Numbered from the stretch's first letter, positions 2-25,899 are shown. The stretch: DNA of 51,277 nt from an uncultured Bifidobacteriaceae bacterium (GCA_964391765.1 CAYMNG010000005.1:1-51277), one strand, 5' to 3'. Notes: generated from the letters alone by a model not told the origin. Translations and numbers: made by a program.

Positions 2-1180
2 GCAGTCGGAGCCGCCGCACTCATCCTGAGCTCCTGCAGTGGCACGTCGAACACGGCCACCCCCGCGAGCACCGCTCCGGCGTCCGCGGCGGCCGGCGCG
101 TCACCGACCGCCGCGAGCGCGGACGCCGGATCGTCCGCGCTCGCCGAGGCGCAGGCGCAGCTGGTCGAACTGGAGAAGCCGATCACCACGTGGCCCCAGG
201 TCGCCCCGCTGGCCAAGCCGGCCGACCTGACCGGCAAGAAGATCACCCTCGTCCCGTTCATCGAGGAGGTGCCGATCATGCACGGCACCGGGCAGGGCTT
301 CATCGCCGCACTCGAGAAGCTCGGCGCGACCGTCGACGTCTGCGATGGCGGCGGTGACCCGACGAAGGTCGCGTCGTGCCTGACGACGGCCGGTCAGCGT
401 GGTGTCGACGCCGCCGTGACGCTCTTCATCGACTACGACGCGATCGGCAACGCCGTGGACGGCCTGACGCAGAAGGGCATCCCCGTCCTCATCGGCGGCA
501 TGCCGCCGTCGAAGAATCGCCCCGCCGACTCGCTCCTGGGCTACGCCGACCACTCGCCGTTCACCAACAAGGGCTACGAGTACCTCGCCGACGCCGCGCT
601 GGCGGCCGGCGGAGCCGACGCGTCCGTCGTCGCCGGCCGCCTGCGCGACTCGAGCCTGACCACCGAGTTCAGCGACACGATGGTCGACACGTTCAAGACC
701 CTGTGCCCGAACTGCCCGATCTCGACCTTCGACTTCACCGCGCCGACCGTCAGCGGGGTGCCGACGGCGGTCAGCGCCGCGCTGGCGACGCAGCCCGACA
801 CGAACATCGTCGTGATGCCCGACGACGGCTTCGCGACGGCGGCGTTGCAGGGGATCCAGAGCGCCGGCTTCACCGACAAGGCGAAGATCGTCGCGTACGG
901 GGCCGACCCGGCCGGACTCGAGCGCGTCAAGGCGGGCCAGGAGGCCGCGTCGATCGGGTTCCCCGTCGAGTTCGAGGGCTGGCGGCTGGCGAACTCCCTG
1001 CTGCAGCTGCTCGGCGGCGAACAGGTCACCCCGATCACCGAGCTGGCGGTGCGCGCCTTCACCGCGAACAACGTCGGTGACCTCGACATCCGTCCGGAGA
1101 ACTACTTCACCAGTTCCTGGTACGGAAACGACAGTTTCAAGAAGGACTTCCTCGCCGCATGGGGTGCGCCGGCGTCATGA
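2..1180 (+). CDS. Sugar-type (CUT2 / PBP type I) ABC transporter substrate-binding lipoprotein, 5' end cut by window edge
   Basis: Frame 2 is open from nt 2. The N-terminal part reads AVGAAALILSSCSG (lipobox) followed by an Ala/Ser/Pro linker. The remainder resembles periplasmic ribose/xylose-type binding proteins. Stop TGA 1178-1180 overlaps the next ATG (ATGA). ORF-track start 269 is an internal GTG. Confidence 0.8.
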   Translation, partial: AVGAAALILSSCSGTSNTATPASTAPASAAAGASPTAASADAGSSALAEAQAQLVELEKPITTWPQVAPLAKPADLTGKKITLVPFIEEVPIMHGTGQGFIAALEKLGATVDVCDGGGDPTKVASCLTTAGQRGVDAAVTLFIDYDAIGNAVDGLTQKGIPVLIGGMPPSKNRPADSLLGYADHSPFTNKGYEYLADAALAAGGADASVVAGRLRDSSLTTEFSDTMVDTFKTLCPNCPISTFDFTAPTVSGVPTAVSAALATQPDTNIVVMPDDGFATAALQGIQSAGFTDKAKIVAYGADPAGLERVKAGQEAASIGFPVEFEGWRLANSLLQLLGGEQVTPITELAVRAFTANNVGDLDIRPENYFTSSWYGNDSFKKDFLAAWGAPAS

Positions 1181-2712
1181 CCGTCGCGCGACTCGAGGCG
1201 CACCATCTGAGCAAGACCTTCGGCTCCGCCAAGGTCCTCGACGACGTGAGCCTGGTGATCCAGCCGGGGGAGATCCACGCCCTCGTCGGCCAGAACGGAT
1301 CAGGTAAGTCGACGGTCGTGAAGATCCTCACCGGGTACCACACCCCGGACCCCGGTGCCTCGATCGCACTGGACGGGCACGCGCTCGCGCTGCCCGTCCA
1401 GTGGCGCGAGGCCAGCGCCGCCGGCATGTCGGTCGTCCACCAGGACCTCGGACTCGTCAACGACCTCACCGTCAGCGAGAACATCGGCGTCGGCGGATTC
1501 GTCCGGTCGCCGATCATCCGCCGGATCGACTGGCGACGGCAGGCGCAGGTCGCGGCGGACATCCTCACGCGACTGCGAATCGATGTCGATCCGCACGCGA
1601 TGGTCGGTCAACTGCCCGCGGCCCAGCGGGCAGCGGTCGGTATCGCCCGGGCGCTGCGTGACCAGGTCGACGGCGCCGGCCTGATGATCCTCGACGAGGC
1701 GACCCGCGCGCTCCCGAAGGAGCACCTGCGAGCCTTCCACGACCTCGTTCGCCGCGTGGCCGCGAACGGTGTGTCGGTCCTCGTGATCAGCCACAACCTC
1801 GAGGAGGTGCTGGCCGTCACGGACAAGGTCACGGTCCTGCGCGACGGCAGGGTCGCGGCGGCCGGGTTGAGCACCGCGTCGCTCACCGAGGACACGATCG
1901 CCCGGCACATGCTCGGCAAGTCCGTCCGGCTGATGCACCCGGGCCGAACGTCGGTGCGTCCGGGCACGCTCGCGGCCCGGATCGACGACGTTCAGATCCC
2001 CGGCCACCTCCCGCTCTCGGTGACGATCGCGAAGGGGGAGGTGCGGGGGGCGACCGCTGTGCCCGGCACGGGTTTCGAGGACGACGCGCAGCCGGTCTCG
2101 GGCGCGCGCCGCGCCGTCGGCGGCACCGTCACCACGCAGTCGGGCACGATCGACCTGCGTCGGAGCACGGTCGCCGACCTGATGCGCGCCGGCGTATCGA
2201 TGGTCCCCGAGCGCCGGGTCTTCGAAGGGCTGGCCGTCGACCTGAACGTCCGGGACAACGTCGCCCTGCCGAGCTTCCGCCGCAAGGGGAAACCGTGGTA
2301 CGTCGCCCGTCGGTGGCAGCACGACCTCACCAACGGCTACATCGAACAGCTGAAGATCAAGACACGGTCCAGCGACTCCCTCATCCGCGAGCTGAGCGGC
2401 GGCAACCAGCAGAAGGTCCTGTTCGCCAAGTGGATCTCGGTCGAACCGCTGCTGCTGGTCCTGCACGAACCCACGCAGGCCGTGGACGTCGGTGCACGGG
2501 CCGATCTCCTGGCCGCGGTCGCCGCGGCCGCCGACGAGGGGATGGGCGTCCTGTTGGTCAGCACCGAACCCGCGGACCTGGTCGCCGCGTGTGACCGGAT
2601 CCTCGTGCTCCGTCCCGGCTCCGAACCCGTCGAACTGATCACCCGATCCCCGGACGACGTCCTCGACGCCGTCTACGCCGACACGACCTCCTCGGGAAGC
2701 GCACATGCCTGA
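1177..2712 (+). CDS. Fused two-domain ABC transporter ATP-binding protein (RbsA/MglA-like, CUT2)
   Basis: N-half Walker A is GQNGSGKST. C-half signature is LSGGNQQK with a degenerate second Walker A, as in CUT2 ATPases. ATG 1177 forms an ATGA overlap with the upstream stop. ATG 1159 (ORF track) is an alternative start. Confidence 0.85.
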   Translation: MTVARLEAHHLSKTFGSAKVLDDVSLVIQPGEIHALVGQNGSGKSTVVKILTGYHTPDPGASIALDGHALALPVQWREASAAGMSVVHQDLGLVNDLTVSENIGVGGFVRSPIIRRIDWRRQAQVAADILTRLRIDVDPHAMVGQLPAAQRAAVGIARALRDQVDGAGLMILDEATRALPKEHLRAFHDLVRRVAANGVSVLVISHNLEEVLAVTDKVTVLRDGRVAAAGLSTASLTEDTIARHMLGKSVRLMHPGRTSVRPGTLAARIDDVQIPGHLPLSVTIAKGEVRGATAVPGTGFEDDAQPVSGARRAVGGTVTTQSGTIDLRRSTVADLMRAGVSMVPERRVFEGLAVDLNVRDNVALPSFRRKGKPWYVARRWQHDLTNGYIEQLKIKTRSSDSLIRELSGGNQQKVLFAKWISVEPLLLVLHEPTQAVDVGARADLLAAVAAAADEGMGVLLVSTEPADLVAACDRILVLRPGSEPVELITRSPDDVLDAVYADTTSSGSAHA

Positions 2713-3754
2713 CATCACCGCCAATCCGCCGGCTTCGGCACCCACGACCGCTCGATCGGACGACCCGACGCGACTGGTGCCGCCGACGCGGCGACGCGCC
2801 CTTCCACCGTGGGCACACGTCCTCCTCGCCCGGTACGCGCTCGTCCTGCTGTGGATCGTCATGGCCGGGGTGTTCTGGATCGCCGAACCGGAGACGTTCG
2901 GCTCGGCCGTGACGATCTCGGCGATCTTCAGCGGCAAGCAGGTGCAGGTGTTCCTCGCGATGTCCGTCCTCGTGACCGCGGTGATCGGCGAACTGGACCT
3001 GTCGTTCGCCGCGGTGATGGGGATATCGGCGACGGCGACCTCGGTCCTGGCCAGTGTCTACGGCTGGCCGGTCTGGCTGGCGTGCCTGGCCGGAATCCTC
3101 GCGGCGCTGTTGTGCGGTGTCGCCAACGGCATGCTCGTCGTCGGCCTCGGTGTGTCGTCGCTGATCGTGACGCTCGGCATGAGCACCCTGCTGATGGGCC
3201 TGGCCCAGTGGATGAGCGGCAACACGATCGTCTCGCTGGTGAGTCCCGCGCTGGCCAACCTCGTCCTGTACGAGGTGCTGGGCATGCCGGTGTCCTTCTG
3301 GTACGGCGTCGGACTGGCGGTGCTGATCGCGTACTTCCTCGGCTGGACCCCGACCGGCCGGAGCATGGTCTTCATCGGCTCCAACCAGGAGGTCGCCCGC
3401 CTGGCCGGGATCCGGGTCAACCGCGTGCGATTCGGCGCATTCGTCGCGGCCGCGCTGCTCGCCGGACTGGCCGGCCAGATCCTGGTGGCCACGGTCGGCG
3501 GGGTGAGCGCGTCCACGTCGCTGTCGTTCCTGCTGCCCGCCCTGGCCGCGGTGTTCCTCGGAACGGCGGTCGTCCGGCCGGGGACGTTCAACCCGATCGG
3601 CACGTTGATCGCCATCTTCTTCCTCGAGACCGGCATCTACGGCCTGCAGCTGATGGGCCTGACGGGGTGGATCAAGGACGTGTTCTACGGCGCCGGCCTG
3701 GTCGCCGCGGTCACGCTCACCAAGATCGTCGGGGATCGGACCCGAACCGGCTGA
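2705..3754 (+). CDS. ABC transporter permease (RbsC/branched sugar permease family)
   Basis: 349-aa highly hydrophobic multi-TM protein following the ATPase. Its ATG overlaps the ATPase stop by 8 nt. GC3-rich frame. Confidence 0.85.
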   Translation: MPDITANPPASAPTTARSDDPTRLVPPTRRRALPPWAHVLLARYALVLLWIVMAGVFWIAEPETFGSAVTISAIFSGKQVQVFLAMSVLVTAVIGELDLSFAAVMGISATATSVLASVYGWPVWLACLAGILAALLCGVANGMLVVGLGVSSLIVTLGMSTLLMGLAQWMSGNTIVSLVSPALANLVLYEVLGMPVSFWYGVGLAVLIAYFLGWTPTGRSMVFIGSNQEVARLAGIRVNRVRFGAFVAAALLAGLAGQILVATVGGVSASTSLSFLLPALAAVFLGTAVVRPGTFNPIGTLIAIFFLETGIYGLQLMGLTGWIKDVFYGAGLVAAVTLTKIVGDRTRTG

Positions 3755-3813
3755 CCCGACGACCGTCCCGACGACGCGAACGACGAGCGACCCCTCGAGG
3801 TGGTGAACCACGC

Positions 3814-4371
3814 ATGAAATCGACCTGGCGCACGGTCATGGGCGAGTGCCCGACCGCGGTCACGATCGTCACGTCCACCGACGAGTCCGGCTCGCCGGTC
3901 GGGATGGTGGTCGGGACGTTCACCTCGGTGTCCGAGACCCCGCCGCTCGTCGGCTTCCTCGCGATGGCCTCGTCGTTCACCTACGGCGTCATCCGCCGAT
4001 CAGGCCGGTTCCGGGCCTCGGTCCTGGGCGCCACCCACGAAGCCCTGTGCCGGCACTTCTTCGCGTCCTCGCACGAGGGCCGGTTCTCGACGGACGTGTG
4101 GGAGTACGACGAGCATGGGCTGCCCCGCTTGCGGGACGCGATCGCGTGGTTCGACGCCACAGTGGACCGCACCCTCGGCGTGGGTGACCACGACTTCGTC
4201 GTCGGCGCCGTCCACGGCCTCGGCACGGGCACGGGGACGCACGAGGACCTGCCGTTGATCTTCCTGCGTGGTGGGTATCGCTCGATCAGCCGGTTGGGCC
4301 AGGTCCATCACGCCCCGGACCCGTTCTCGTCCCCGATCGAGTTCGGCTCACCGTACTTCTCCCTGTCCTGA
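3814..4371 (+). CDS. hpaC: Flavin reductase (NAD(P)H:flavin oxidoreductase small component of a two-component monooxygenase)
   Basis: 185 aa with a flavin-reductase-domain pattern (CPTAVTIVTS...GMVVGTFTSVSETPPLVGF...HDFVVG). It sits directly upstream of hpaB and is the only credible part of spurious ORF-track entry 2809..4371. Confidence 0.8.
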   Translation: MKSTWRTVMGECPTAVTIVTSTDESGSPVGMVVGTFTSVSETPPLVGFLAMASSFTYGVIRRSGRFRASVLGATHEALCRHFFASSHEGRFSTDVWEYDEHGLPRLRDAIAWFDATVDRTLGVGDHDFVVGAVHGLGTGTGTHEDLPLIFLRGGYRSISRLGQVHHAPDPFSSPIEFGSPYFSLS

Positions 4372-4409
4372 CCGACCGACACACGACCCACTCGACGAAG
4401 GGCACGACC

Positions 4410-5966
4410 ATGACCGAGAACCCTGACGCCCCGACGGGCCAGACGACGGCGCTCCCGCCGAACGGCGAGCAGTTCCTCGCCAGCCTCCGAGACGGACGCG
4501 AGGTGTGGATCTACGGCGAGCGGGTCGACGACGTCACGACCCATCCGGCGTTCCGCAACTCCGCGCGGTCGTTGGCACGGCTCTACGACGCGCTGCACGA
4601 TCCGGTGACGGCCGGCGTCGTGACGTCCCCGACCGACACCGGCAACGGAGGGTTCACCCACCCCTTCTTCAAGCTGGCCTACACGCGCGACGACCTTCGT
4701 GCGAGCCGCGACGCGATCACCCAATGGCAGCAGTTGGTGTTCGGCTGGATGGGCCGGACCCCCGACTACAAGGCCTCGCTGACGACTCCGCTCGGCGCGA
4801 ACCCCGAGTTCTTCGGCGAGTACGCGGACAACGCGCGTCGGTGGTACCGGGAGATCCAGGAGCAGGTGCTCCATATCGGTCACGCGATCATCCACCCGCC
4901 GGTCGACCGGAACCGCGCGGCCGACGAGGTCCGCGACGTGTACGTTCACGTCGAGTCGACGAACGACAACGGGATCGTCGTCTCCGGCGCCAAGGTCGTC
5001 GCGACGGGCTCGCCGACGACGCAGTACAACTACGTGTCGCATATGGGCGTCCCGTTGGGCGACAACAATTTCGCGGTCACCTTCCTCGCGCCGTCGGCGG
5101 GCCGGGGGATCAAGATGATCGCGCGGCACTCGTACGAGGAGGCGGCCGCGCGCGCGGCCGGGCCGTTCGACTACCCACTGTCGAGCCGGTTCGACGAGAA
5201 CGACGCGATCCTGGTGTTCGACGAGGCGCTGATCCCCTGGGAGAACGTCCTCATGTTCGACGCCAAGAAGTTGCCGGAGTTCGACGCGGTCGCCGGTTGG
5301 ATCCCGCGGGCGATCTTCCAGGCCTCGACCAGGCTCGGGGTGAAGCTCGACTTCATCATCGGCGTCCTGTCGTACGCACTGGAGATCACGGGGGCCGGCG
5401 TCTACCGCGGCGTGCAGGCCGGTCTGGGCGAGGTCGTCGCGATCCGCAACGTCGTCAACGCGCTCCGTGACGGCATGATCGAGAACGCCGAACCCGGGTG
5501 GGGTGGAACCCTCGACCCACACACGGGGTACGCGTACGCGTACGCCTCGACGGCTCCGGGGTTGTACCGCCGGATGCGCGAGATCATCTCCACGATCGTC
5601 GCGTCGGGTCTGATCTACCTGAACTCCCACGCCGTCGACTTCGAGACTCCCGAGCTCCGTCCCTACCTCGATCGGTACCTGCGCGGTTCGAACGACAAGA
5701 CCGCGCTGGACCGCAGCCGGACGATGAAGCTGCTGTGGGACGCGGTCTGCAGCGAGTTCGGCGCGCGGCACGAGTTGTACGAGCTGAACTACTTCGGCCA
5801 GCCGGAGCTGAACTACGTCCTCGGCCAGGAGCACGCGCACGGTGACGGGACGATCGACCACGCCCGTGATCTGGCCCGCGAGGCGATGTCGGCCTACGAC
5901 CTGGGCGGGTGGACCGACGGTGTACTGGTGAACCCCGACGACGTCAGCTTCTTGCGTCGACGCTGA
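4410..5966 (+). CDS. hpaB: 4-hydroxyphenylacetate 3-monooxygenase, oxygenase component
   Basis: 518 aa. Long colinear blocks match E. coli HpaB as I recall it: GRE.WIYGERVDDVTTHPAFRN, GWMGRTPDYKA, YDYPLSSRFDENDAILVFD..LIPWENVL, GVQAGLGEVVA, GRHELYELNY. Confidence 0.92.
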   Translation: MTENPDAPTGQTTALPPNGEQFLASLRDGREVWIYGERVDDVTTHPAFRNSARSLARLYDALHDPVTAGVVTSPTDTGNGGFTHPFFKLAYTRDDLRASRDAITQWQQLVFGWMGRTPDYKASLTTPLGANPEFFGEYADNARRWYREIQEQVLHIGHAIIHPPVDRNRAADEVRDVYVHVESTNDNGIVVSGAKVVATGSPTTQYNYVSHMGVPLGDNNFAVTFLAPSAGRGIKMIARHSYEEAAARAAGPFDYPLSSRFDENDAILVFDEALIPWENVLMFDAKKLPEFDAVAGWIPRAIFQASTRLGVKLDFIIGVLSYALEITGAGVYRGVQAGLGEVVAIRNVVNALRDGMIENAEPGWGGTLDPHTGYAYAYASTAPGLYRRMREIISTIVASGLIYLNSHAVDFETPELRPYLDRYLRGSNDKTALDRSRTMKLLWDAVCSEFGARHELYELNYFGQPELNYVLGQEHAHGDGTIDHARDLAREAMSAYDLGGWTDGVLVNPDDVSFLRRR

Positions 5967-5976
5967 TCCGCGCTCG

Positions 5977-6013
5977 GCGTACGGGCACGCCGCCGCGCCG
6001 GCGGCCCGTACGC
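5977..6013 (+). terminator. Strong GC hairpin after hpaB (putative intrinsic terminator without U-tail)
   Basis: Perfect 10-bp arms: gcgtacgggc (5977-5986) and gcccgtacgc (6004-6013). The 17-nt loop can pair further. It starts 11 nt after the hpaB stop. No T-run follows, which is common in actinobacteria. Confidence 0.5.
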
Positions 6014-6038
6014 TAGGGGGTCGACGGGGAGGAGGCCC

Positions 6039-6989
6039 ATGCGCAGGTGGCCCGATGTGCCTGGGCAGACGAAGGCGCTGGTGCGGCGCGCGAGAGAGTC
6101 CGGCACGGCCGCCGTCGTCGACGTTCGTGAGCGCGTCGTCCTCGCGGGTGACGTCCGGAAGCACGGTCCGCTGGCCGCGGCCGCGCGACTGGGACTGCGT
6201 AGTGACCGCCCGTTGCCGATGTACTGGTGGGCCGGGGAGACCAACTTCGGCGACATCCTGTCGCCGGTGATCACCGCGTACGTCTCGGGGATGTCGCCGC
6301 GGCCGGTGCACTCGCGCCGGCACGGAAAGGTGGTCGCTGTGGGCAGCGTGCTGTTCGCGGCCCGGCCCGGGGACGTCGTCTGGGGCGCAGGGTCGGTGCG
6401 CGAGCAGCCGGTCGACCTCGACGGCACGGTCGTCCTGGCGGTCCGCGGGCCACTGACCGCGGCGCTCGTCCGCGGCGACGTCGCCCCCGCTGTGCACGGG
6501 GATCCGGCAGTTCTCCTGCCCCGCCTGCACGCCCCGCGGGAGCTGCCGAACGCACGGATCGGCCTGGTGCCGCACCTGGTGGACCGGGCGATCATGACGA
6601 GCGGGGACCCGGCGGTGCGGGTGATCGACCTCGGCACGCGCGACTGGCGGAGCGTCGTGGACCAAATCGCCGCCTGCGACGTCGTGCTGTCCTCGTCGCT
6701 GCACGGCGTCATCGTGGCCGAGGCCTACGGGGTGCCGGCGGTGTGGACGAAGGCCTCGGACGGTGTCGTCGGCGATGGATTCAAGTTCCGCGACTACTAC
6801 GCCGCGACCGACCGGGACGTCGGGCAGGCCCGGCTGTGGGGCGCGCCGCTGGCGGACCTCGTCGACTCGGCGGTCGCGCCGCCGGCCATCGACGGCCAGC
6901 GGCTCGTCGACGCCTGGCGGGCGCACTTCGGACCGATGCCCGCCGAGACGTCATCGCGGCCGGCGGCTCGTCGGGCGGGCGAGCGGTGA
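6039..6989 (+). CDS. Polysaccharide pyruvyl transferase family protein
   Basis: YWWAGETNFGDILSPVI matches the NFGD.LS motif region of PS_pyruv_trans proteins (CsaB/WcaK type). There is a strong SD (ggaggagg) just before ATG 6039. The true start could be the internal ATG 6219, which has no SD. Confidence 0.7.
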   Translation: MRRWPDVPGQTKALVRRARESGTAAVVDVRERVVLAGDVRKHGPLAAAARLGLRSDRPLPMYWWAGETNFGDILSPVITAYVSGMSPRPVHSRRHGKVVAVGSVLFAARPGDVVWGAGSVREQPVDLDGTVVLAVRGPLTAALVRGDVAPAVHGDPAVLLPRLHAPRELPNARIGLVPHLVDRAIMTSGDPAVRVIDLGTRDWRSVVDQIAACDVVLSSSLHGVIVAEAYGVPAVWTKASDGVVGDGFKFRDYYAATDRDVGQARLWGAPLADLVDSAVAPPAIDGQRLVDAWRAHFGPMPAETSSRPAARRAGER

Positions 6990-8107
6990 TCATCGGGCCG
7001 GCCCGCATCGAGGTCGGGGTGGAAGCGCGAGTGAGGTTCCCCATCCGCTGGGACGCGGACGTGCCCGACGAACTGTGGTTCGAGGTCGACGCGCGACACG
7101 CCGAGATGCTGAGCGACCGGGCCGACGCGGCGCTGCTCGGACTGGTGTGCGCGGCGATGAGGGCGGGCGAGGACGTGCACGTCGAGGGACCGGTGACCGA
7201 CCTCCAGGTCGCTCGGCTGGCCGGGGAGTTCCAGGACCTGTGCACGCGGGTCAGCCCACAGTGGCAGCAGGTCGCGGTGACGGCCGCCGAACCCGTTGCG
7301 TCGGCCGGTCGCGCCGCGGGCGTCGGCCTGACCTTCTCCGGCGGGGTGGACTCCTTCGCCGCGTTCGCGCGGCACCACCTGGACGCGCTGTTCGCGTCGA
7401 CCCGGCTGACCCACCTGCTCTACACGAACGCCGGCTCGCACGAGCCGTACGGGCGCGAACTGTTCCACCGCAGGCTCGCGCGGATTGCCCCGATCGGCGA
7501 GCGCGTCGACATCCCGCTCGTCCGCATCGACTCGAACATCAGCGACTTCTACTGGCCGGGTTCGTGGGAGTCGACCCACGTCACCCGCAATGTCGCGACG
7601 GTGCTGGCACTGCAGGCCGGGCTCGGTCGCCTTCGGCATGCCGGTTCCTACGAGTGGCCGTATGTGCGGATCGTCCCGGACGGCGTGCAGTCCCGGGTCG
7701 AGCCGATCCTCATGCCGATGCTCGCCACCGACGCGTTCACCCCGCAGACCGCACTCGGTGGGCTCACGCGGATGGCCAAGACCCGGATCGTCGCAGACAC
7801 GGCCCTGGCCCACGAGTTCCTCAGCGTCTGCACGGCCGCCGGCGACGGCAACTGCTCGCGGTGCGTGAAGTGCCAGATGACGGTGCTGAGCCTGGAGCTC
7901 ATGGGCGCGGCGGACCGCTTCGCCGGGGTCTTCGACCTCGAGACGTGCCGGCGCGGACGGGAGGACTTTCTCGGCTTCCTCTGGGCGAGCTCCGGTCACC
8001 TGCACGGTGAACTGCGCGAGCACCTCCTGGTGGCCGGCATCGCACCGCCGCGCCGGTCGCTGGCCGGTCGCGCGGTCGCCGGTGCCCGGCGCGTGGTCGG
8101 GAGGTAG
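6986..8107 (+). CDS. QueC-like PP-loop ATP pyrophosphatase-fold protein with unknown N-terminal domain (paralogue 1)
   Basis: It carries FSGGVDSF (SGGxDS PP-loop) and a C-terminal C-x7-C-x2-C-x2-C motif (VCTAAGDGNCSRCVKC). GTG 6986 overlaps the upstream stop (GTGA). The N-terminal 250 aa of ORF-track entry 6227..8107 are an out-of-frame shadow of the pyruvyl transferase gene. Confidence 0.6.
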   Translation: MIIGPARIEVGVEARVRFPIRWDADVPDELWFEVDARHAEMLSDRADAALLGLVCAAMRAGEDVHVEGPVTDLQVARLAGEFQDLCTRVSPQWQQVAVTAAEPVASAGRAAGVGLTFSGGVDSFAAFARHHLDALFASTRLTHLLYTNAGSHEPYGRELFHRRLARIAPIGERVDIPLVRIDSNISDFYWPGSWESTHVTRNVATVLALQAGLGRLRHAGSYEWPYVRIVPDGVQSRVEPILMPMLATDAFTPQTALGGLTRMAKTRIVADTALAHEFLSVCTAAGDGNCSRCVKCQMTVLSLELMGAADRFAGVFDLETCRRGREDFLGFLWASSGHLHGELREHLLVAGIAPPRRSLAGRAVAGARRVVGR

Positions 8108-8113
8108 GGGCGG

Positions 8114-9226
8114 ATGCGGATCGGTCACGGACGTGTCGGTGAGGGCGGTAGCGCCGATACGCGAAGGCTGAGCTTCCCGGTCGCCTCCGACCGTGACCGG
8201 CCGGACACGTTGTGGTTCGAGGTTCCGACCGGGCACGCGGACCTGCTGTCGACGCGGGGCGACGCGGCGCTGGTGGCCCTACTCGTAGCGGCCATGCACG
8301 ACGGCGAGGACGTGCACCTGGACGCCGAGGTCACCGACGCGCTCGCGGGTGCCGCGAGCGACGAACTGCAGTCGCTCCTTCGCCTGGTCACCCCGGACCT
8401 GAAGCGGATCCGGGTGGACGTCGCGCGGGCGGAGCCGGCCGCGGACCCCGCGCCGGGGAGAGCCCTGGCGTTCTCCGGGGGAGTCGACTCCTTCGCCACG
8501 CTCGACCGACAGCTGCTGAACGCGGCCTGCGCGTCCGATCGGGTCACCCATCTGGTCTTCACCAACGTCGGCTCGCACGACCCGGTAGGACGACCGCTGT
8601 TCCACGACCGACTGCGCCGACTGGCCTCGATCGGCCCCCGGCTGGGAGTGCCGCTCGTGCCCGTGGACAGCAACCTGTCGGACTTCTACTGGCCCGCGTC
8701 CTGGCGCGGGACGCACGTGACGCGCAACGTCGCGGCCGGCCTGGCCCTGCAGGGCGGGGTCCGGCGGCTGTTCCACGCGTCGACGTCCCACTGGGCCGAG
8801 CTCGTCCTGGGTGAGAGCAGCTACCAGTCCGCCGTCGAGCCGGCGCTCGTCCCGATGCTGGGCACCGACGCGTTCGAGATCGTGACGACGATGTCGAACC
8901 TCGACCGGCTCGGGCGCACCCGAATCGTGGCCGAGGTTCCCGTCGCCTGGGACTTCCTCGACGTGTGCACGGCCGAGGTCGGCGGCACGAACTGCGGGGC
9001 CTGCCACAAGTGCCAGGTCACGATGATCCACCTGGAGATCATCGGCGCGCAGGAGCGCTTCGCGCACGTGTTCGACCTCGACCAGTTTCGTCGCGGCCGC
9101 AACGACTTCCTCACGCACGTCTTCACGACCGACGACGACTACTACGTCGATCTCGTCGCCCATCTGCGGGCGGCCGGGATCGCGCCTCGAGCCGCGCGCC
9201 GGCTCGCCTGGCTGCGGGGTGGGTGA
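8114..9226 (+). CDS. QueC-like PP-loop ATP pyrophosphatase-fold protein with unknown N-terminal domain (paralogue 2)
   Basis: Colinear with paralogue 1. Shared blocks include LWFEV, FSGGVDSF, TN.GSH, DSN.SDFYWP.SW..THVTRNVA, TRIVA, and a 4-Cys motif VCTAEVGGTNCGACHKC. A gggagg SD lies 8 nt upstream of ATG 8114. Confidence 0.65.
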   Translation: MRIGHGRVGEGGSADTRRLSFPVASDRDRPDTLWFEVPTGHADLLSTRGDAALVALLVAAMHDGEDVHLDAEVTDALAGAASDELQSLLRLVTPDLKRIRVDVARAEPAADPAPGRALAFSGGVDSFATLDRQLLNAACASDRVTHLVFTNVGSHDPVGRPLFHDRLRRLASIGPRLGVPLVPVDSNLSDFYWPASWRGTHVTRNVAAGLALQGGVRRLFHASTSHWAELVLGESSYQSAVEPALVPMLGTDAFEIVTTMSNLDRLGRTRIVAEVPVAWDFLDVCTAEVGGTNCGACHKCQVTMIHLEIIGAQERFAHVFDLDQFRRGRNDFLTHVFTTDDDYYVDLVAHLRAAGIAPRAARRLAWLRGG

Positions 9227-9346
9227 GGCCGCCGGAACGATTTGCATGAAAACGAAGCCAGATTCAGTTTCAGCGCGTAGATTGCCTCCTTGTTCCGTCC
9301 AGCACAGCCCGGGTGCACATCACTCGGCACACAGCAGGGAGACCAG

Positions 9347-10450
9347 ATGAGGACAGTTCTTCGCGCAGTCCTGGCAGGGGGTGCGGCAATCGCCCTTACG
9401 GCGTCGCTCGTCGGTCCGGCGTCGGCCGCGAACAACCCGTCTCCGGCCCAGGTCGCCGCCGGGTACATGAAGGAACCGACGCGGATCAACCAGAAGGTGC
9501 CGCTGCGGGTCAAGCCCCCGCGTGGCATCAAGCTCGCCTACATGCAGCAGGGCATTCCGACGCAGGTCATGGTGGGCAAGTACCTCGCGCAGGCGGCGAC
9601 CACGGTCGGCTGGTCGGTCTTCGAGGTGCCGTGGAACACCTCCGATCCGGCGAAGATCAACAGCGGCCTGCAGAACGCCGTCCAGCAGGGGGCGCAGATC
9701 ATCGTGGCGCCCGGGATCCTGCCCTCGATGGTCAGCGCGACGGTGAAGAACCAGCTCGCCGATGCGAAGATCCCCGTCATCCTCGGGCAGATCTGCTCGA
9801 CCGACCCGATCCCGGCACCGTTCATCGCCGGATTCGGCCTGTGCGCCAACGAGGCGCCGCTGGCCCGCTCGCTCGCGGCCTGGGTCGCCGCCGACTCCAA
9901 GGGCTCTGGCCGGGTCCTGTTCTCCGACACGCAGGGTGTGCCGCTGCTCGTGCCGTTCAAGCAGCGGTTCGCGGCCGAACTGCGCAGCATGTGCCCCGGT
10001 TGCAGCGTGACCTACCAGCCGATCACGATCGCGCAGTTCGTCGGCGGGCAGATCCCCGGGATCATGGTCTCCGCGCTGCGCCGCGATCCGTCGGTCGACT
10101 ACATGTTCTTCGACACCGGGCAGCTGAGCAAGGGGATCCTGCCCGCGCTGGACTCGGCGGGACTGCTGTCGAAGGTCAAGGTCGGTGGCCGTAGCGCCTC
10201 GGCGGCGGAACTGCAGGGCCTGCGCGACAAGCAGATGGTCGTGTGGACGATGCAGAGCTTCGGTGTGTACGGCTTCGCGGCGCTGGATGCGGCGCTTCGG
10301 GTCGTGACGAAGTCCAGCGGGATCACCGGCAACGCCGTGCTCCCCGTGCAGCTGCTCACGACGGTGAACGTCGACTCGGCGCCCGATCCGTACGAGGTCG
10401 TCCCGGCGAACGCGCTCGCGATGTACAAGAAGTTGTGGCGAGTGAGCTAG
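9347..10450 (+). CDS. Sugar-type (CUT2) ABC transporter substrate-binding protein with Sec signal peptide
   Basis: Signal peptide is MRTVLRAVLAGGAAIALTASLVGPASA. The body resembles a PBP type I protein. A gggag SD lies 6 nt before ATG 9347. ORF-track start 9290 (TTG) is probably too early. Confidence 0.8.
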   Translation: MRTVLRAVLAGGAAIALTASLVGPASAANNPSPAQVAAGYMKEPTRINQKVPLRVKPPRGIKLAYMQQGIPTQVMVGKYLAQAATTVGWSVFEVPWNTSDPAKINSGLQNAVQQGAQIIVAPGILPSMVSATVKNQLADAKIPVILGQICSTDPIPAPFIAGFGLCANEAPLARSLAAWVAADSKGSGRVLFSDTQGVPLLVPFKQRFAAELRSMCPGCSVTYQPITIAQFVGGQIPGIMVSALRRDPSVDYMFFDTGQLSKGILPALDSAGLLSKVKVGGRSASAAELQGLRDKQMVVWTMQSFGVYGFAALDAALRVVTKSSGITGNAVLPVQLLTTVNVDSAPDPYEVVPANALAMYKKLWRVS

Positions 10451-10454
10451 TTCG

Positions 10455-12086
10455 TTGACCTTCTCGGATGTGCCACGCAACACCCAGGGCAACACCGGCG
10501 GGGCTGGTGGTGAAGACGCCACCAGCCCCGCCGCGGGCGGCCGGACGCTCGCCCTGGAGTGCGACGGACTGGCGAAGACGTTCGTCGGCCGCACGGTCCT
10601 GCACCCCTTTCGGCTGACCGTCGCTCCCGGTGAGATCCACGCGCTGCTCGGTCAGAACGGATCGGGCAAGTCGACGCTGATCAAGATCCTGTCCGGACTG
10701 CATCACCCCGACTCCCCCGCTGCGGTCTGCCGGGTCGGTGGTCGGCAACTGACCTTCGGTGACTCGCTGTCCGCGCACGCGCTCGGACTGCGGTTCGTCC
10801 ACCAGGACCTCGGCCTGGTGCTGCAGTCCTCGATCGCGGACAACCTCGGCTTCACGCAGGGGTATCCCACCCGGTTCGGGGCGATCCGTCGATCGGCGAC
10901 GAGCGAACGAGCACGCCGGATGCTCGCGACCGTCGAACTCGACCTCGACCCGGCGACCTTGGTGTCGAGCCTGACCAATGCGCAGCGCACGGGGGTGGCC
11001 GTGGCCCGCGCGATGGGCCTGGACACGACCTCGGCCCGAGTGCTCGTGCTCGACGAGCCGACCGCCACCCTCCCCGAGACCGACGTCGCCCACCTGCATG
11101 CGACCCTGCGAGCCGCGGCGGCCAGCGGCGTCGGCATCTTGTACGTCACGCACCACCTGGACGAGGTGTTCACCCTGGCGACCACCGTGAGCGTCCTTCG
11201 CGACGGCCGCCTCGTCCACAGCGGGCCGGTCGCGGCGACCGATCGCCCGGCGGTCGTCCGGCACCTGGTCGGACGCGAACTCGAGGAGGTCGCCCGGACC
11301 GGGTCGGCGGCCGGCGACGCGCGGGCGGACCGCCCGATCGCACTGGACGTGCGTGACCTCGAGGACGACATCATCCGGGGGATCTCGCTCACCGTCCGGG
11401 CGGGCGAGATCGTGGGGATCTACGGGCTCGTCGGATCGGGCAGCGAGTCGGTGCTCGGCGCGATCTACGGTGCCCGGGCACGCACCGGCGGGACCGTGAC
11501 GGTCCGCTCGACGGTGGTCGAGCCGTTCCGGCCGAAGTCGTCGCGGGCGGCGGGAGTCGCGTACGTCCCCCCGGATCGCAAGGTGTCCGGTGGCTTCATG
11601 CACCTGACCGCGGCGGAGAACATCACGTTGGCGGACCTGAGCACCGTGTGGCACTGGGGCTTCCTGCGGCTTCGGCGCGAGGCGAGCGAGGCCGCCAGGT
11701 GGTTCGAGTCGCTCCAGGTGCACCCGCGGGACGGGGTCGACGCGCAACTGGCGACGTTCAGCGGCGGCAACCAGCAGAAGATCGTCTTCGGCAAGTGGCT
11801 GCGGACCGACCCCGTGGTCCTGCTGTTGGACGAACCGACGCAGGGCGTGGACGTCGGGGCGAAGGCCGAACTGCACCGGCGGATCATCCGGTCCTGCGCC
11901 GACGGCCTGGCGGTCGTGGTGAGCTCCACGGACGTCGAGGAACTCGCCACGTTGTGCGATCGCGTCCTGTTCATCGTCGGTGGCCGGATCGCCGGCGAGA
12001 TGTCCGGCGGCGGGTTCACCGACGTCGCCATCAACCACAGGTTCCACGAAGTCCAATCGTCGGCCAGTCGCGGAGTGCGTTCATGA
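10455..12086 (+). CDS. Fused two-domain ABC transporter ATP-binding protein (CUT2)
   Basis: Walker A is GQNGSGKST and the second-half signature is FSGGNQQK. TTG start at 10455; the exact start is uncertain. Confidence 0.85.
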   Translation: MTFSDVPRNTQGNTGGAGGEDATSPAAGGRTLALECDGLAKTFVGRTVLHPFRLTVAPGEIHALLGQNGSGKSTLIKILSGLHHPDSPAAVCRVGGRQLTFGDSLSAHALGLRFVHQDLGLVLQSSIADNLGFTQGYPTRFGAIRRSATSERARRMLATVELDLDPATLVSSLTNAQRTGVAVARAMGLDTTSARVLVLDEPTATLPETDVAHLHATLRAAAASGVGILYVTHHLDEVFTLATTVSVLRDGRLVHSGPVAATDRPAVVRHLVGRELEEVARTGSAAGDARADRPIALDVRDLEDDIIRGISLTVRAGEIVGIYGLVGSGSESVLGAIYGARARTGGTVTVRSTVVEPFRPKSSRAAGVAYVPPDRKVSGGFMHLTAAENITLADLSTVWHWGFLRLRREASEAARWFESLQVHPRDGVDAQLATFSGGNQQKIVFGKWLRTDPVVLLLDEPTQGVDVGAKAELHRRIIRSCADGLAVVVSSTDVEELATLCDRVLFIVGGRIAGEMSGGGFTDVAINHRFHEVQSSASRGVRS

Positions 12087-13141
12087 AGATCAACCTGGGT
12101 CTGGATCGCTTCAGCGGGATCTACCTGCTGGGCATCTTCGTCGTGGTGTTCTCGATCCTCGCCCCGTCGACCTTCCCGACGATGTCGACACTGCACATCA
12201 TCGCCTCGTCGCAGGCGGCGGTCGGTGTCGTGGCGCTCGCGGTCCTCATCCCGCTCATCGCCGGGCAGTTCGACCTGTCGATCGGCGCCAATGCGAACCT
12301 CGCCGGGATCTGCGCGCTGATGCTGCAGACGAACGGGATCCTCGGCGCGATCCTGGCGCTGCTCGCCGGCATCGGCATCGGCGTCGTCATCGGCCTGCTC
12401 AACGGGATGCTCGTGGTCGTCTTCAAGGTCAACTCGTTCATCGCGACGCTGGCGATGACCTCGGTGCTGTCGGCCGTCCTGCTCATGGTGACCCGCAGCG
12501 AGGAGATCCCCCCGGGTGAGTACGGGCCGTTCCAGCAACTGACGCAGACCGACGTGTTCGGATTCCAGTCGGTCATTCTCTTCACGATCGTCCTCGCCGT
12601 GATCGTCTGGTGGGTGATCGAGCGCACGCCGCCGGGGCGGTACCTGCGCGCGGTCGGCCAGAACCCCGAAGCGGCCCGGCTCACCGGGCTACCGGTCAAC
12701 CGCCTGGTGTGGATGTCACTCGTCGCCTCCGGCGGGATCGCCGCGTTCGGCGGGATCCTCGTCGTGTCCTCGACCGGCCCGTCGCTCGAGTTCGGCCCCG
12801 GGCTGCTGCTGCCGACGTTCGCGGCGGCGTTCTTGGGCTCGACGCAGATCCAACCCGGACGCGAGAACGTTTGGGGCACGCTCATCGCCATCCTCGTGCT
12901 CGCGGTGGGCGTGCAGGGCCTGCAGCTCGTGACCGGGGTCGTGTGGGTCGCCCCGTTGTTCAACGGCCTGGCCCTCATGGTCGCCGTCGCCGTCGCGGTC
13001 AATCGCCAGTCCCGCGTGACCCGGGCGAGGACGAAGCCACCGGGGGACTCGCTCGGCTCGGCCGGGGGCGAGCACGTCGTCGGGCAGGCGACCGCTGACG
13101 GGGTGGCCTCGGCGACGACCTCGGGAGGAGCCGATGAGTAG
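12083..13141 (+). CDS. ABC transporter permease (RbsC-like)
   Basis: MKINLGLDRFSGIYLLGIFVVVF..., multi-TM. ATG 12083 forms an ATGA overlap with the ATPase stop. This is the only credible part of ORF-track entry 11648..13141. Confidence 0.85.
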   Translation: MKINLGLDRFSGIYLLGIFVVVFSILAPSTFPTMSTLHIIASSQAAVGVVALAVLIPLIAGQFDLSIGANANLAGICALMLQTNGILGAILALLAGIGIGVVIGLLNGMLVVVFKVNSFIATLAMTSVLSAVLLMVTRSEEIPPGEYGPFQQLTQTDVFGFQSVILFTIVLAVIVWWVIERTPPGRYLRAVGQNPEAARLTGLPVNRLVWMSLVASGGIAAFGGILVVSSTGPSLEFGPGLLLPTFAAAFLGSTQIQPGRENVWGTLIAILVLAVGVQGLQLVTGVVWVAPLFNGLALMVAVAVAVNRQSRVTRARTKPPGDSLGSAGGEHVVGQATADGVASATTSGGADE

Positions 13142-23282: not shown

Positions 23283-24466
23283 CGGGGTAGGCCCAGGCCT
23301 CTCTGCGCAACGAGGTTGAGGTGGATCTCGTCGGTCCCGCCCGCCAGCCGCAGTCCGGGTACGCCGAGGGTGAACGCCGACCAGTCGTCGACCTCGTCGC
23401 CGCCACCGTGCAGGGCGGGTCCGAGCAGTTCGGGGAGCGAGTCGTCCATCCGCATCAGCGCGTCGACGAGCGCGAGCTTGCTCAGCGACCCGGCGACCGG
23501 TTCGAGGCGACCCCAGGATCCGGGTCGCCGAGCGGCGAGGGCGCCGGCGGCGACGGCGGCCGCCACGGCGCGACCGACGTCGGCAGAGCAGGAACCGGTT
23601 CGGGCCACGAGATCGGCGTAGCGGGTCAGGACCGCGGGCGTGAGCGGGCCGGCCCCCCGCATCATCGCCAGCCGCTCGCTGTTCAGGCTCGTGGCGGCCA
23701 CCTGCCAGCCGTTGCCGGCCGCCCCGACCATGTCGGCCACGGGCACCCGGACGTCCGCCAGGAAGACCTCGTTGAAGGCGGCTCCGCCGGTCATCTGGCG
23801 CAGCGGTCGGACCGTCACGCCCGGTGCCCGCATGTCGACCAGCAGCATGCTCAACCCGGCGTGCTTGCCCGCGGCGGGGTCGGTTCGGACGAGGAGTTCG
23901 CCGATGTCGGCGACGTGGGCCATGGACGTCCAGACCTTCTGTCCGTTGACGATCCACTCGTCGCCGTCACGGACGGCCGAGGTCCGCGCGCCGGCCAGGT
24001 CGGAACCGGAGCCCGGCTCGGAGAACAACTGGCAGCCGACGAGGTCGCCGCTGTGGATCGCCGGCAGGTAGCGGCGCCGCAGGCCCTCGTCGCCGTGGGC
24101 CTCGATCGCCGGTGCGACGATGTCCAGGCCGATCATCAGCGGGGCCCGTGACGGCAGCCCGCTCTGGTCGACGACGGCGTCCACGGCGAGCTGCCAGCCG
24201 GCCGGCCGTCCGCCGCCGCCGAGTTCGCGCGGGCCGGCGAGCCAGGCCAGCCCGGCGGCGAACAACGCCGCCTGGGCCCTCCGGGCGACGCTAACCTGCT
24301 CGGAGTCGCGTTCGACGGTCTCCTCGATCAAGGAGACCTCGCGGTGCCGCTCGGTGAGGGCCGTCGTGCGGTAGTCGCGCAGGACGTCCCTCGCGACGGC
24401 GAGGACGTCCTCGACGGTCGACGCGGCGTCGACCCGCTGTCGGGCGAGCGCGAGGTCCGCGGTCAC
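23279..24466 (-). CDS. Acyl-CoA dehydrogenase
   Basis: FSEPGSGSDLAGARTSA and IVNGQKVWTS motifs. The C-terminal LAGGTDEIHLNLVAQR has Gly at the MCAD catalytic-Glu position. GTG 24466 overlaps the upstream stop (GTGA). Confidence 0.8.
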   Translation of the reverse strand: MTADLALARQRVDAASTVEDVLAVARDVLRDYRTTALTERHREVSLIEETVERDSEQVSVARRAQAALFAAGLAWLAGPRELGGGGRPAGWQLAVDAVVDQSGLPSRAPLMIGLDIVAPAIEAHGDEGLRRRYLPAIHSGDLVGCQLFSEPGSGSDLAGARTSAVRDGDEWIVNGQKVWTSMAHVADIGELLVRTDPAAGKHAGLSMLLVDMRAPGVTVRPLRQMTGGAAFNEVFLADVRVPVADMVGAAGNGWQVAATSLNSERLAMMRGAGPLTPAVLTRYADLVARTGSCSADVGRAVAAAVAAGALAARRPGSWGRLEPVAGSLSKLALVDALMRMDDSLPELLGPALHGGGDEVDDWSAFTLGVPGLRLAGGTDEIHLNLVAQRGLGLPR

Positions 24467-25833: not shown

Positions 25834-25899
25834 GTGCTGCCTCTCAGGGTCGTGGGTCGGGGGTGCGTTCGCGGTGGGGACCGTGCCGGCTCGACGGCG

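Follow-up and report, generated by a model that had tools for sequence, protein, structure and literature searches.

A conserved pairing of a pyruvyl-transferase homologue with QueC-fold PP-loop proteins, seen from a three-gene cassette of an uncultured Bifidobacteriaceae bacterium: possible editing of a pyruvate-ketal carboxylate

What would a gene resembling polysaccharide pyruvyl transferases do together with two adjacent paralogues resembling QueC, at a place where neither glycan-synthesis genes nor the usual partners of QueC are annotated? The question is raised by a stretch of 51,277 nucleotides from an uncultured Bifidobacteriaceae bacterium (GCA_964391765.1, CAYMNG010000005.1:1-51277; the whole stretch is referred to here as the window), in which three co-directional open reading frames (ORFs) were read from the sequence on the + strand at positions 6039-9226. 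Gene 1 (6039-6989, ATG start, 316 amino acids, aa) encodes a homologue of the ketal-pyruvyl transferases of Pfam family PF04230, and genes 2 (6986-8107, GTG start at 6986, 373 aa) and 3 (8114-9226, 370 aa) encode QueC-fold PP-loop proteins, paralogues A and B, respectively. An earlier reading of the nucleotide sequence, hereafter the original prediction, had supposed that the paralogues might convert the carboxylate of a pyruvate ketal into an amide or a nitrile, and had considered the combination to be undescribed; no paper on a pyruvyl transferase together with a PP-loop or QueC protein was found in the literature. Our analysis leaves little doubt about the identities of the components, and indicates that the two enzyme types form a conserved unit whose chemistry may indeed be of the proposed kind.

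The evidence that they belong together comes from other genomes. On metagenome contigs with distant homologues, a PF04230 gene adjoins the PP-loop gene inside polysaccharide clusters. A gene-1-type transferase was present in the fetched flanks of 33 of 80 genome loci, and of 17 of the 37 loci for which full 6-kb flanks were available; at 24 of the 80 it lay within about 250 bp of the PP-loop gene, in 19 of these 24 cases on the same strand. The transferase-linked loci came from Verrucomicrobiota, Planctomycetota, Proteobacteria, Actinomycetota, Bacteroidota, Chloroflexota and Nitrospirota, and their PP-loop members were scattered through the family rather than confined to a single clade. When neighbour families were counted over 89 related loci, the gene-1-type transferase was the commonest (35 loci), followed by the glycosyltransferase families GT4 (26) and GT2 (23), MsbA-type exporters (20) and Wzx (8). 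The cassette, predicted to be an orphan, is one in this window only; elsewhere the gene 2/3 family usually lies inside polysaccharide loci. Cultivable species in which the two genes adjoin include Marinobacter sp. QJJ-212 (L020), Microbacterium hydrocarbonoxydans (L063), M. aurantiacum (L074), Pseudoalteromonas sp. EB27 (L065) and Endozoicomonas numazuensis (L081).

The two enzyme types were also found joined in single proteins: P0025 and P0151, which belong to the best 150 representatives of the family, and a third at genome locus L013. These three independent fusions carry the PP-loop part N-terminally and a gene-1-type transferase C-terminally, the latter with the gene 1 motifs NFGD, VRGPLT, GDPALL, SSSLHG and FKFxDY. 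Triad-like arrays, in which two or three tandem PP-loop genes accompany the transferase, occur in Chloroflexota (L019), Nitrospirota (L049) and Planctomycetota (L027); tandem PP-loop copies as such were seen at 12 of the 89 loci, and also on the contig of the closest relative (L090). Other PF04230 subtypes, not caught by the gene-1 profile, adjoin the PP-loop gene at L003/L004 and L014. Because the pairing recurs across phyla and as fused proteins, it is a conserved functional unit; chance adjacency was rejected on the same grounds, and functional coupling of both enzyme types is regarded as likely.

Gene 1 matched the Pfam model PS_pyruv_trans (PF04230) with 32.0 bits against a cut-off of 25.3, the alignment covering residues 188-236 only (about 50 residues, C-terminal). 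The same domain was found on all 120 listed homologues of gene 1, many of them labelled 'pyruvyltransferase' by JGI. The NFGD.LS motif that had been noticed is present as NFGDILS (aa 69-75, positions 6243-6263), and is followed on the same + strand by VRGPLT (6441-6458), SSSLHG (6690-6707) and FKFRDY (6780-6797). The AlphaFold 2 model (predicted local distance difference test, pLDDT, 91.3) had yeast Pvg1p as its best match in the PDB (5ax7_A, E = 8.6e-4, probability 0.97), followed by GT-B enzymes, and its fold is of the two-domain Pvg1p/CsaB type according to the model and this structural match. In the gene 1 subfamily N69, G71, D72, R136, H222 and K249 are invariant, as is S220 in SSSLHG. 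For CsaB, R148, H308 and K328 are experimentally important binders of phosphoenolpyruvate (PEP), and R306 is a PEP-binding residue as well (PMC10435577); going by motif order, R136, H222 and K249 of gene 1 probably correspond to R148, H308 and K328. S220 takes the motif-order position of the PEP-contacting Arg located two residues before the His (R306 in CsaB, R337 in Pvg1p).

Gene 1 thereby resembles the characterized PF04230 enzymes (CsaB, Pvg1p and those of the GumL/ExoV/PssM type) in its GT-B-like fold, the N-terminal NxGD and, probably, the Arg, His and Lys at the PEP motif positions, and differs from them in the divergence of its subfamily, the invariant Ser in place of the Arg preceding the catalytic His, and a helical N-terminal extension of about 55 aa; moreover, coupling to PP-loop genes is undescribed for any characterized pyruvyl transferase. 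Given the Pfam match, the PF04230 homologues, the structural match to Pvg1p and the invariant residues, gene 1 is, as judged from sequence and model, a genuine though divergent pyruvyl-transferase homologue, as had been predicted.

Genes 2 and 3, estimated by eye to share about half of their residues, are 50% identical over 358 aa (E = 3e-112), and all the motifs listed for them beforehand were found: LWFEV, GEDVH and FSGGVDSF in both, together with a C-terminal cluster of four Cys. In gene 2 the PP-loop SGGVDS is encoded at 7337-7354 and the cluster, C-x7-C-x2-C-x2-C, at 7829-7873, while in gene 3 the loop lies at 8474-8491 and the cluster, C-x8-C-x2-C-x2-C, at 8966-9013, all on the + strand. 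Across 117-163 family members, the invariant or nearly invariant positions comprise the PP-loop S-[GA]-G-x-D-S, H146, N151-x-G153-x-H155, R166, S186-N187, R204-N205, R265, the four Cys (the first spacer varying from 6 to 12 residues) and K299. Both paralogues retain all of these core residues, and therefore both look catalytically competent at the level of sequence.

The family to which they belong is large and without a name. Although a word-indexed search returned only 16 relatives and made the family appear very rare, this rarity was a sensitivity artefact, since 8,630 cluster representatives were obtained at E <= 1e-3, and 2,644 at E <= 1e-30, when profiles were searched exhaustively; the family thus comprises no fewer than 2,644 clusters at 50% identity. 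Scanned by pattern, with one genome taken for each species, it was present in 247 species from many phyla. The plasmid collection contained two remote homologues only, both from Paracoccus yeei and both annotated as hypothetical; for a Paracoccus member the RefSeq name is 'hypothetical protein'. One of these, on plasmid pYEE4 (L094, 8461-10137), is a 558-aa protein of 24% identity with an SCGVDS loop and an additional N-terminal region of about 170 aa, and is surrounded by catabolic genes. In another unusual member, the predicted polypeptide P0024 (1315 aa), two tandem PP-loop copies whose loop reads SLGVDS are linked to Mur_ligase_C, LRR_5 and VanY domains; this may be either a read-through artefact or a real fusion linked to the cell wall.

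Family searches, which the original prediction had proposed as a check, assigned genes 2 and 3 to no characterized family. No model of Pfam, NCBIfam or PADLOC recognizes either of them, the sole exception being a sub-threshold match of gene 2 to DUF6395. This domain of unknown function was the only recurrent sequence match of the family, a weak one found in 55 of 117 members over the region from the Arg/Lys positions to the Cys cluster; every such match fell below the gathering score (best E = 6.8e-4) and covered about 50 of the 174 model positions, and a literature search found no paper mentioning the domain. The remaining weak Pfam and NCBIfam matches of the family were spread over NAD synthetase, LarE, MnmA and QueC; GMP synthase was another PP-loop enzyme among the weak sequence matches. 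Against PDB sequences, a phmmer search with gene 3 gave no match and profile searches built from 17 and 145 sequences gave PP-loop matches only, none significant; all seven weak matches were PP-loop enzymes aligned at the loop.

The predicted structure was more informative. In the AlphaFold 2 model of gene 3 (pLDDT 91.4, predicted template modelling score 0.89), a mixed alpha/beta domain of approximately residues 1-110 comes first. A Rossmann-type core of five strands opens with the PP-loop, and is followed by the Cys cluster and, at the C-terminus, by some 70 aa of helical extension. The core comprises five strand-helix units, SGGVDS lying between the strand 115-119 and the helix 124-135, so that loop position and alpha/beta architecture are those that define the PP-loop superfamily. 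Foldseek matches of this model to the PDB were weak (E of about 0.03), the credible ones being the PP-loop ATPases GMP synthase, NcsA, TilS and YcfA, and QueC was absent from the top 50. Among the predicted viral structures of BFVD, the top five matches were all annotated QueC (E = 2.4e-5 to 3.6e-3, probability 1.00; 218-271 aligned columns), ahead of PAPS reductase and TilS, with target-normalized template modelling scores of 0.29-0.58, and of 0.54-0.58 for the four QueC-sized targets. The N-terminal domain of about 110 aa lay outside these matches; it likewise matched nothing in Pfam, and searched alone against PDB sequences gave only a chance match to the linker of a maltose-binding-protein fusion, in line with the original prediction, which could assign this region to no family.

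How far the likeness to QueC extends can be judged from its defining motifs. A 2026 survey of PF06508 defines QueC by SGGxDS, YxQxHxxE, VPxRN and C(x)8CxxCxxC, and places its zinc site, C-x8-C-x2-C-x2-C, after the last Rossmann strand (PMC13329287). Genes 2/3 share with QueC the loop, the five-stranded core, the position and spacing of the Cys motif, a conserved His that follows strand 2 and, on the next helix, an Arg-Asn pair, in the same order; a relaxed profile alignment paired, in sequence, SGGxDS, the His of YxQxH, the Arg-Asn of VPxRN and all four Cys. However, where QueC has YxQxHxxE and VPxRN the family has N-V-G-S-H and T-x-R-N, in which only the His and the Arg-Asn are kept. By hhalign, the family reached a probability of 6.8% against E. 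coli QueC and of 15.8% against an alignment of 11 QueC sequences from phage genes, the PP-loop alone being aligned confidently. Neither PF06508 nor TIGR00364 matched the window proteins, and sub-threshold matches were seen in 3 of 117 members with Pfam and 1 of 117 with NCBIfam. Significant sequence similarity to QueC is thus lacking (hhalign at most 16%, no Pfam match), and the family further differs from QueC by its N- and C-terminal additions and by partners that are pyruvyl transferases and glycan genes, not queD, queE and folE. The predicted likeness to QueC therefore stands for the fold and the zinc-motif spacing but not for membership, as no sequence method places the proteins in PF06508. 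On sequence and model, genes 2 and 3 are proteins with a QueC-type fold and a QueC-type zinc-motif spacing, probably with zinc at the four Cys, which lie outside the QueC family because the deazaguanine-binding motifs that form the QueC substrate pocket are missing.

The same observations bear on the idea that genes 2 and 3 are divergent true QueC paralogues, making preQ0 or another 7-deazaguanine for the modification of nucleic acids or proteins, as QatC and Cap9 do. In favour of this stand the fold, which is closest to that of QueC, and the common spacing of the zinc motif. In other PF06508 clusters, though, loss of the canonical motifs is said to predict loss of preQ0 synthesis (PMC13329287), and both YxQxHxxE and VPxRN are unconserved here. 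Neither queD, queE, folE, tgt, dpd nor qat genes were found in the window annotation or among the annotated neighbour families and ORFs of the 89 related loci, and there was no PADLOC match, so that we regard this explanation as scarcely credible. A role in defence was rejected as well, in view of the missing PADLOC match and of the lack of partner genes in the window, where neither QatA/B/D nor CD-NTase partners occur. QatC is also set apart by its zinc-motif variant, C-x19-CGxCxxRR (PMC13329287). QatC and Cap9 are nevertheless instructive relatives: the survey presents these anti-phage enzymes as a re-purposed QueC scaffold in which the amine of a protein N-terminus, not ammonia, acts as the nucleophile (PMC13329287), and the scaffold therefore tolerates new acceptors. 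That survey does not mention polysaccharide or pyruvyl contexts.

The Cys cluster admits a different chemistry, since C-x2-C-x2-C is also a classical Fe-S spacing: the four Cys might carry an Fe-S cluster, and the adenylated carboxylate or carbonyl might be turned into a thio-derivative, as by LarE, TtuA and NcsA. Weak LarE sequence matches in 10 of 117 members and the presence of NcsA, a [4Fe-4S] enzyme, among the credible PDB fold matches point in this direction. On the other side, the QueC zinc site has precisely this C-x8-C-x2-C-x2-C spacing and likewise follows the last strand of the core, and LarE of the Fe-S type has three dispersed Cys and aligns poorly with QueC (PMC13329287). The best structural matches were QueC rather than thiolases, and the annotated loci showed neither genes for sulfur carriers nor for cysteine desulfurases next to the family. 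Sulfur transfer is accordingly considered decidedly improbable.

We propose instead, tentatively and with a confidence that stops somewhat short of calling it probable, that the three genes form an operon whose products modify a sugar acceptor in the cytoplasm in two steps, by adenylation of a pyruvate carboxylate and nitrogen capture; the substrate, nucleophile and product named below go beyond the gene identities, fold, motifs and linkage or fusion reported above. None of the three proteins contains a hydrophobic segment, and all three are therefore probably cytoplasmic, as far as sequence can tell, in the compartment where ATP and lipid-linked repeat units are available. In the first step, suggested by family membership, the soluble gene 1 product would use PEP to place a pyruvate ketal, and with it a new carboxylate, on a glycan or on the lipid-linked precursor of one, for which the synthesis genes would lie elsewhere in the genome; pyruvylation of lipid-linked repeat units in the cytoplasm is known (PMC6801904). 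In the second, for which fold, motifs and gene linkage speak, ATP would be bound at SGGVDS of the gene 2 and gene 3 products and used to adenylate a substrate oxygen, most probably one of the pyruvate carboxylate, with release of pyrophosphate.

In PP-loop enzymes, adenylation of a substrate oxygen activates the carbon, which is then passed to a nucleophile, either nitrogen or sulfur. QueC itself adenylates a carboxylate and uses ammonia as the nucleophile, twice (PMC13329287), and chemistry of the same kind, ATP-dependent carboxylate adenylation followed by nitrogen attack, would be expected of the present family. As in QueC, ammonia may serve as the nucleophile; an amine, for instance that of a de-N-acetylated amino sugar, is the alternative. 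A de-N-acetylase adjoins the pair at five loci (PIG-L directly downstream at L040, L042, L060 and L086; Polysacc_deac_1 at L005, 9269-10051), and a variant in which the freed sugar amine serves as the nucleophile is therefore conceivable. The product would be a neutral carboxamide, or a nitrile after a second round, so that the negative charge introduced by pyruvylation would be erased or re-purposed; the two paralogues might pair as a heterodimer, or might run successive or separate reactions. Action on the pyruvate-ketal carboxylate is the simplest reading because the partner enzyme creates a new carboxylate, and amide or nitrile chemistry on the ketal, although unproven, is consistent with all findings; even so, the pyruvate carboxylate as the substrate of the PP-loop enzyme is put forward as a possibility, on balance doubtful.

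The order of the two steps could also be the reverse, the PP-loop proteins preparing or activating a donor or an acceptor and gene 1 perhaps transferring a group not derived from PEP. The PP-loop domain is N-terminal to the transferase in the fusions, and the invariant S220, which by motif order appears to replace the PEP-contacting Arg, hints at an altered donor site. The transferase gene, however, comes first in the window, the remaining presumed PEP-binding positions (Arg, His and Lys) are invariant, gene-1-type transferases occur in many loci without a PP-loop partner, and none of the PP-loop enzymes is known to supply a donor for glycan tailoring. An upstream role of this sort is improbable in our judgement.

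PP-loop amidotransferases that act on surface glycans are familiar, namely the asparagine-synthetase-like formers of uronamides (WbpS) and the N-acetyl-sugar amidotransferases WbuX/PseA (TIGR03573). The gene 2/3 family belongs to the same superfamily and resembles them as an ATP pyrophosphatase, encoded in a polysaccharide locus, that would replace an oxygen group by a nitrogen group. It differs in having no glutaminase domain or partner, in its QueC-type zinc site and in its preference for a pyruvyl transferase as neighbour. It might also be supposed that genes 2/3 work in the same glycan pathway on another target, amidating or amidinating it, for example by converting a uronic-acid carboxylate into a uronamide or an N-acetyl into an acetamidino group (the latter as annotated for WbuX/PseA-type enzymes), the transferase being just a frequent co-tailoring enzyme. 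UDP-glucose dehydrogenase is often encoded in the polysaccharide loci of the family, and uronic acids would therefore be available; sialic-acid-like or polysialyltransferase-like contexts lack the pyruvyl transferase (L008, L029, L044 and L047), and carboxylate-amidating neighbours occur at single loci (Asn_synthase at L028, a TupA ATP-grasp protein at L051). Yet the gene-1-type transferase outranks both GT4 and GT2 as a neighbour, though glycosyltransferases are far commoner in such loci; the three independent fusions link the PP-loop part specifically to a pyruvyl-transferase domain; the cassette of the window consists of a pyruvyl transferase and PP-loop genes only; and TIGR03573 gave no match at E <= 1 with the window proteins or with 117 family members. 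A different target within the pathway is thus rated unlikely.

Action on the pyruvate ketal has its own difficulties, which weigh against it together. Searches of the literature for an amidated or nitrile-bearing pyruvate ketal, as a structure or in an experiment, returned nothing, and the annotated ORFs of the window include no glycan-synthesis genes. The sequence-profile evidence for a specific kinship with QueC, as given by the hhalign values, is weak, and the four Cys could hold an Fe-S cluster instead of zinc. The conservation of the triad, proposed beforehand as a test, came out on both sides: the pairing recurs across phyla and is fused in three proteins, but about half of the family members have no gene-1-type transferase within 6 kb, and the pairing is therefore frequent, not obligatory. 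Some members adjoin unrelated housekeeping genes (mfd, glyQ, corA), and gene-1-type transferases are found without a PP-loop partner as well. The closest genome relatives of genes 2/3 (38-41% identity), at five Gemmatimonadota loci (L001, L002, L018, L026 and L030), share a conserved context in which one to three PP-loop copies are flanked by genes of the SBP56-like, SnoaL, HlyIII and alpha/beta-hydrolase kinds and no glycan genes are seen. Given the members without a transferase or beside unrelated genes, the substrate of the family need not always be a pyruvate ketal. In its fullest form, that of an undescribed tailoring of glycans in many phyla whereby a QueC-fold enzyme makes a carboxamide or a nitrile from the pyruvate-ketal carboxylate of a surface polysaccharide, or cross-links it by an amide bond to a de-N-acetylated amino sugar, the proposal is possible but rather unlikely.

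Several further arrangements of the PP-loop genes were observed. Three tandem paralogues occur in cyanobacteria (L034 and L036) and in Planctomycetota (L043 and L027), and at the sole cyanobacterial locus annotated (L034) the array adjoins glyQ with no transferase nearby. The four loci with polysialyltransferase-like contexts, from Campylobacterales and Sulfurovaceae, have a fixed set made up of a polysialyltransferase-like gene, a hexapeptide acetyltransferase, the PP-loop gene, GT4 and an Elm1-like gene, without a pyruvyl transferase, and a CMP-sugar synthase is near in L008. At L003 and L004 an FrhB/FdhB-like gene (5221-6405 and 3454-4563, respectively; the L003 copy with Fer4 domains) lies two genes 5' of the PP-loop gene, directly 3' of which stands the different PF04230 subtype mentioned above.

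Within the window, the layout of the cassette agreed with the prediction in its three co-directional genes, their overall extent and their junctions. The start of gene 2 overlaps the stop codon (TGA) of gene 1 by 4 bp as GTGA, and gene 3 follows in frame with gene 2 after TAG and two codons (GGG GCG). Gene 1 is preceded by a Shine-Dalgarno-like GGGGAGGAGG (6026-6035, + strand), read directly, which makes a strong ribosome-binding site, and gene 3 by GGGAGG at 8099-8104 (+ strand). Independent gene calls on two other metagenome contigs with an identical gene 1 gave the same 316-aa and 373-aa products. On the downstream side, the AT-richer gap of about 120 nt that had been described extends over 9227-9346, with a guanine-cytosine (GC) content of 58.3% vs. 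72.3% in the cassette, and is followed by an ATP-binding cassette (ABC) transporter binding-protein gene (Peripla_BP_4). On the upstream side, the predicted hairpin exists (5976-6014, + strand, a GC-rich RNA fold with a stem of 16-17 bp directly 3' of the hpaB stop codon), but the strength attributed to it does not stand out: the 76 nt at 5965-6040 fold with -45.2 kcal/mol (z = -1.94; 8 of 200 shuffles fold equally well), which only modestly beats shuffles of GC-rich DNA. It is a probable terminator or insulator 5' of the cassette; the terminator scan gave no match there because the hairpin has no T-tract, and promoter and terminator consensus scans found nothing, as expected for an organism of 71% GC.

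The cassette is isolated among catabolic and transport genes, as the original prediction had stated. The 30 other ORFs annotated in the window include ABC transporters, two HpaB monooxygenases, a flavin reductase, CoA transferases, a thiolase, an acyl-CoA dehydrogenase, CoA ligases, an amidase and regulators, and among them there are no glycosyltransferase, flippase, polymerase, que, dpd or Qat-type genes. No signature of an insertion or mobile element was seen, there being no flanking repeats and the cassette being like the rest of the window in GC content. Two paralogous sugar-type ABC transporter sets (2-3754 and 9347-13141), which agree in strand and gene order and each encode a Peripla_BP_4 binding protein, a double ABC ATPase and a BPD_transp_2 permease, enclose the cassette and an HpaB/flavin-reductase pair (3871-5966). 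The two HpaB-family flavin-dependent monooxygenases (4410-5966 and 24463-25899) are paralogues; the second adjoins a CoA ligase, a homogentisate-dioxygenase-like gene and a TetR regulator, and the two with their neighbours suggest an aromatic-acid catabolic island.

The components belong to known superfamilies, and the QueC-fold family and its coupling to pyruvyl transferases are neither named nor characterized in Pfam, NCBIfam, PADLOC, the PDB or the searchable literature. Bacterial surface polymers owe their negative charge to pyruvate ketals, which also serve as epitopes by which S-layer proteins are anchored and are determinants of exopolysaccharide rheology, symbiosis and recognition by phages and the immune system. 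If the proposal is true, an enzyme that edits the ketal carboxylate would add a new layer of glycan diversity, one that may have been missed or mis-assigned in structural studies. The gene 2/3 family would then be the first QueC-type enzyme acting on carbohydrates, editing the charge of a polymer or cross-linking it, and the range of the QueC scaffold would be widened from nucleobases and proteins to, probably, sugars. A large family left as 'hypothetical' by Pfam, NCBIfam and RefSeq is given a testable function, and the hypothesis can be put to the test directly in several cultivable carriers whose genomes are complete or nearly so (Marinobacter, Microbacterium, Pseudoalteromonas, Sphingobacterium and Endozoicomonas).

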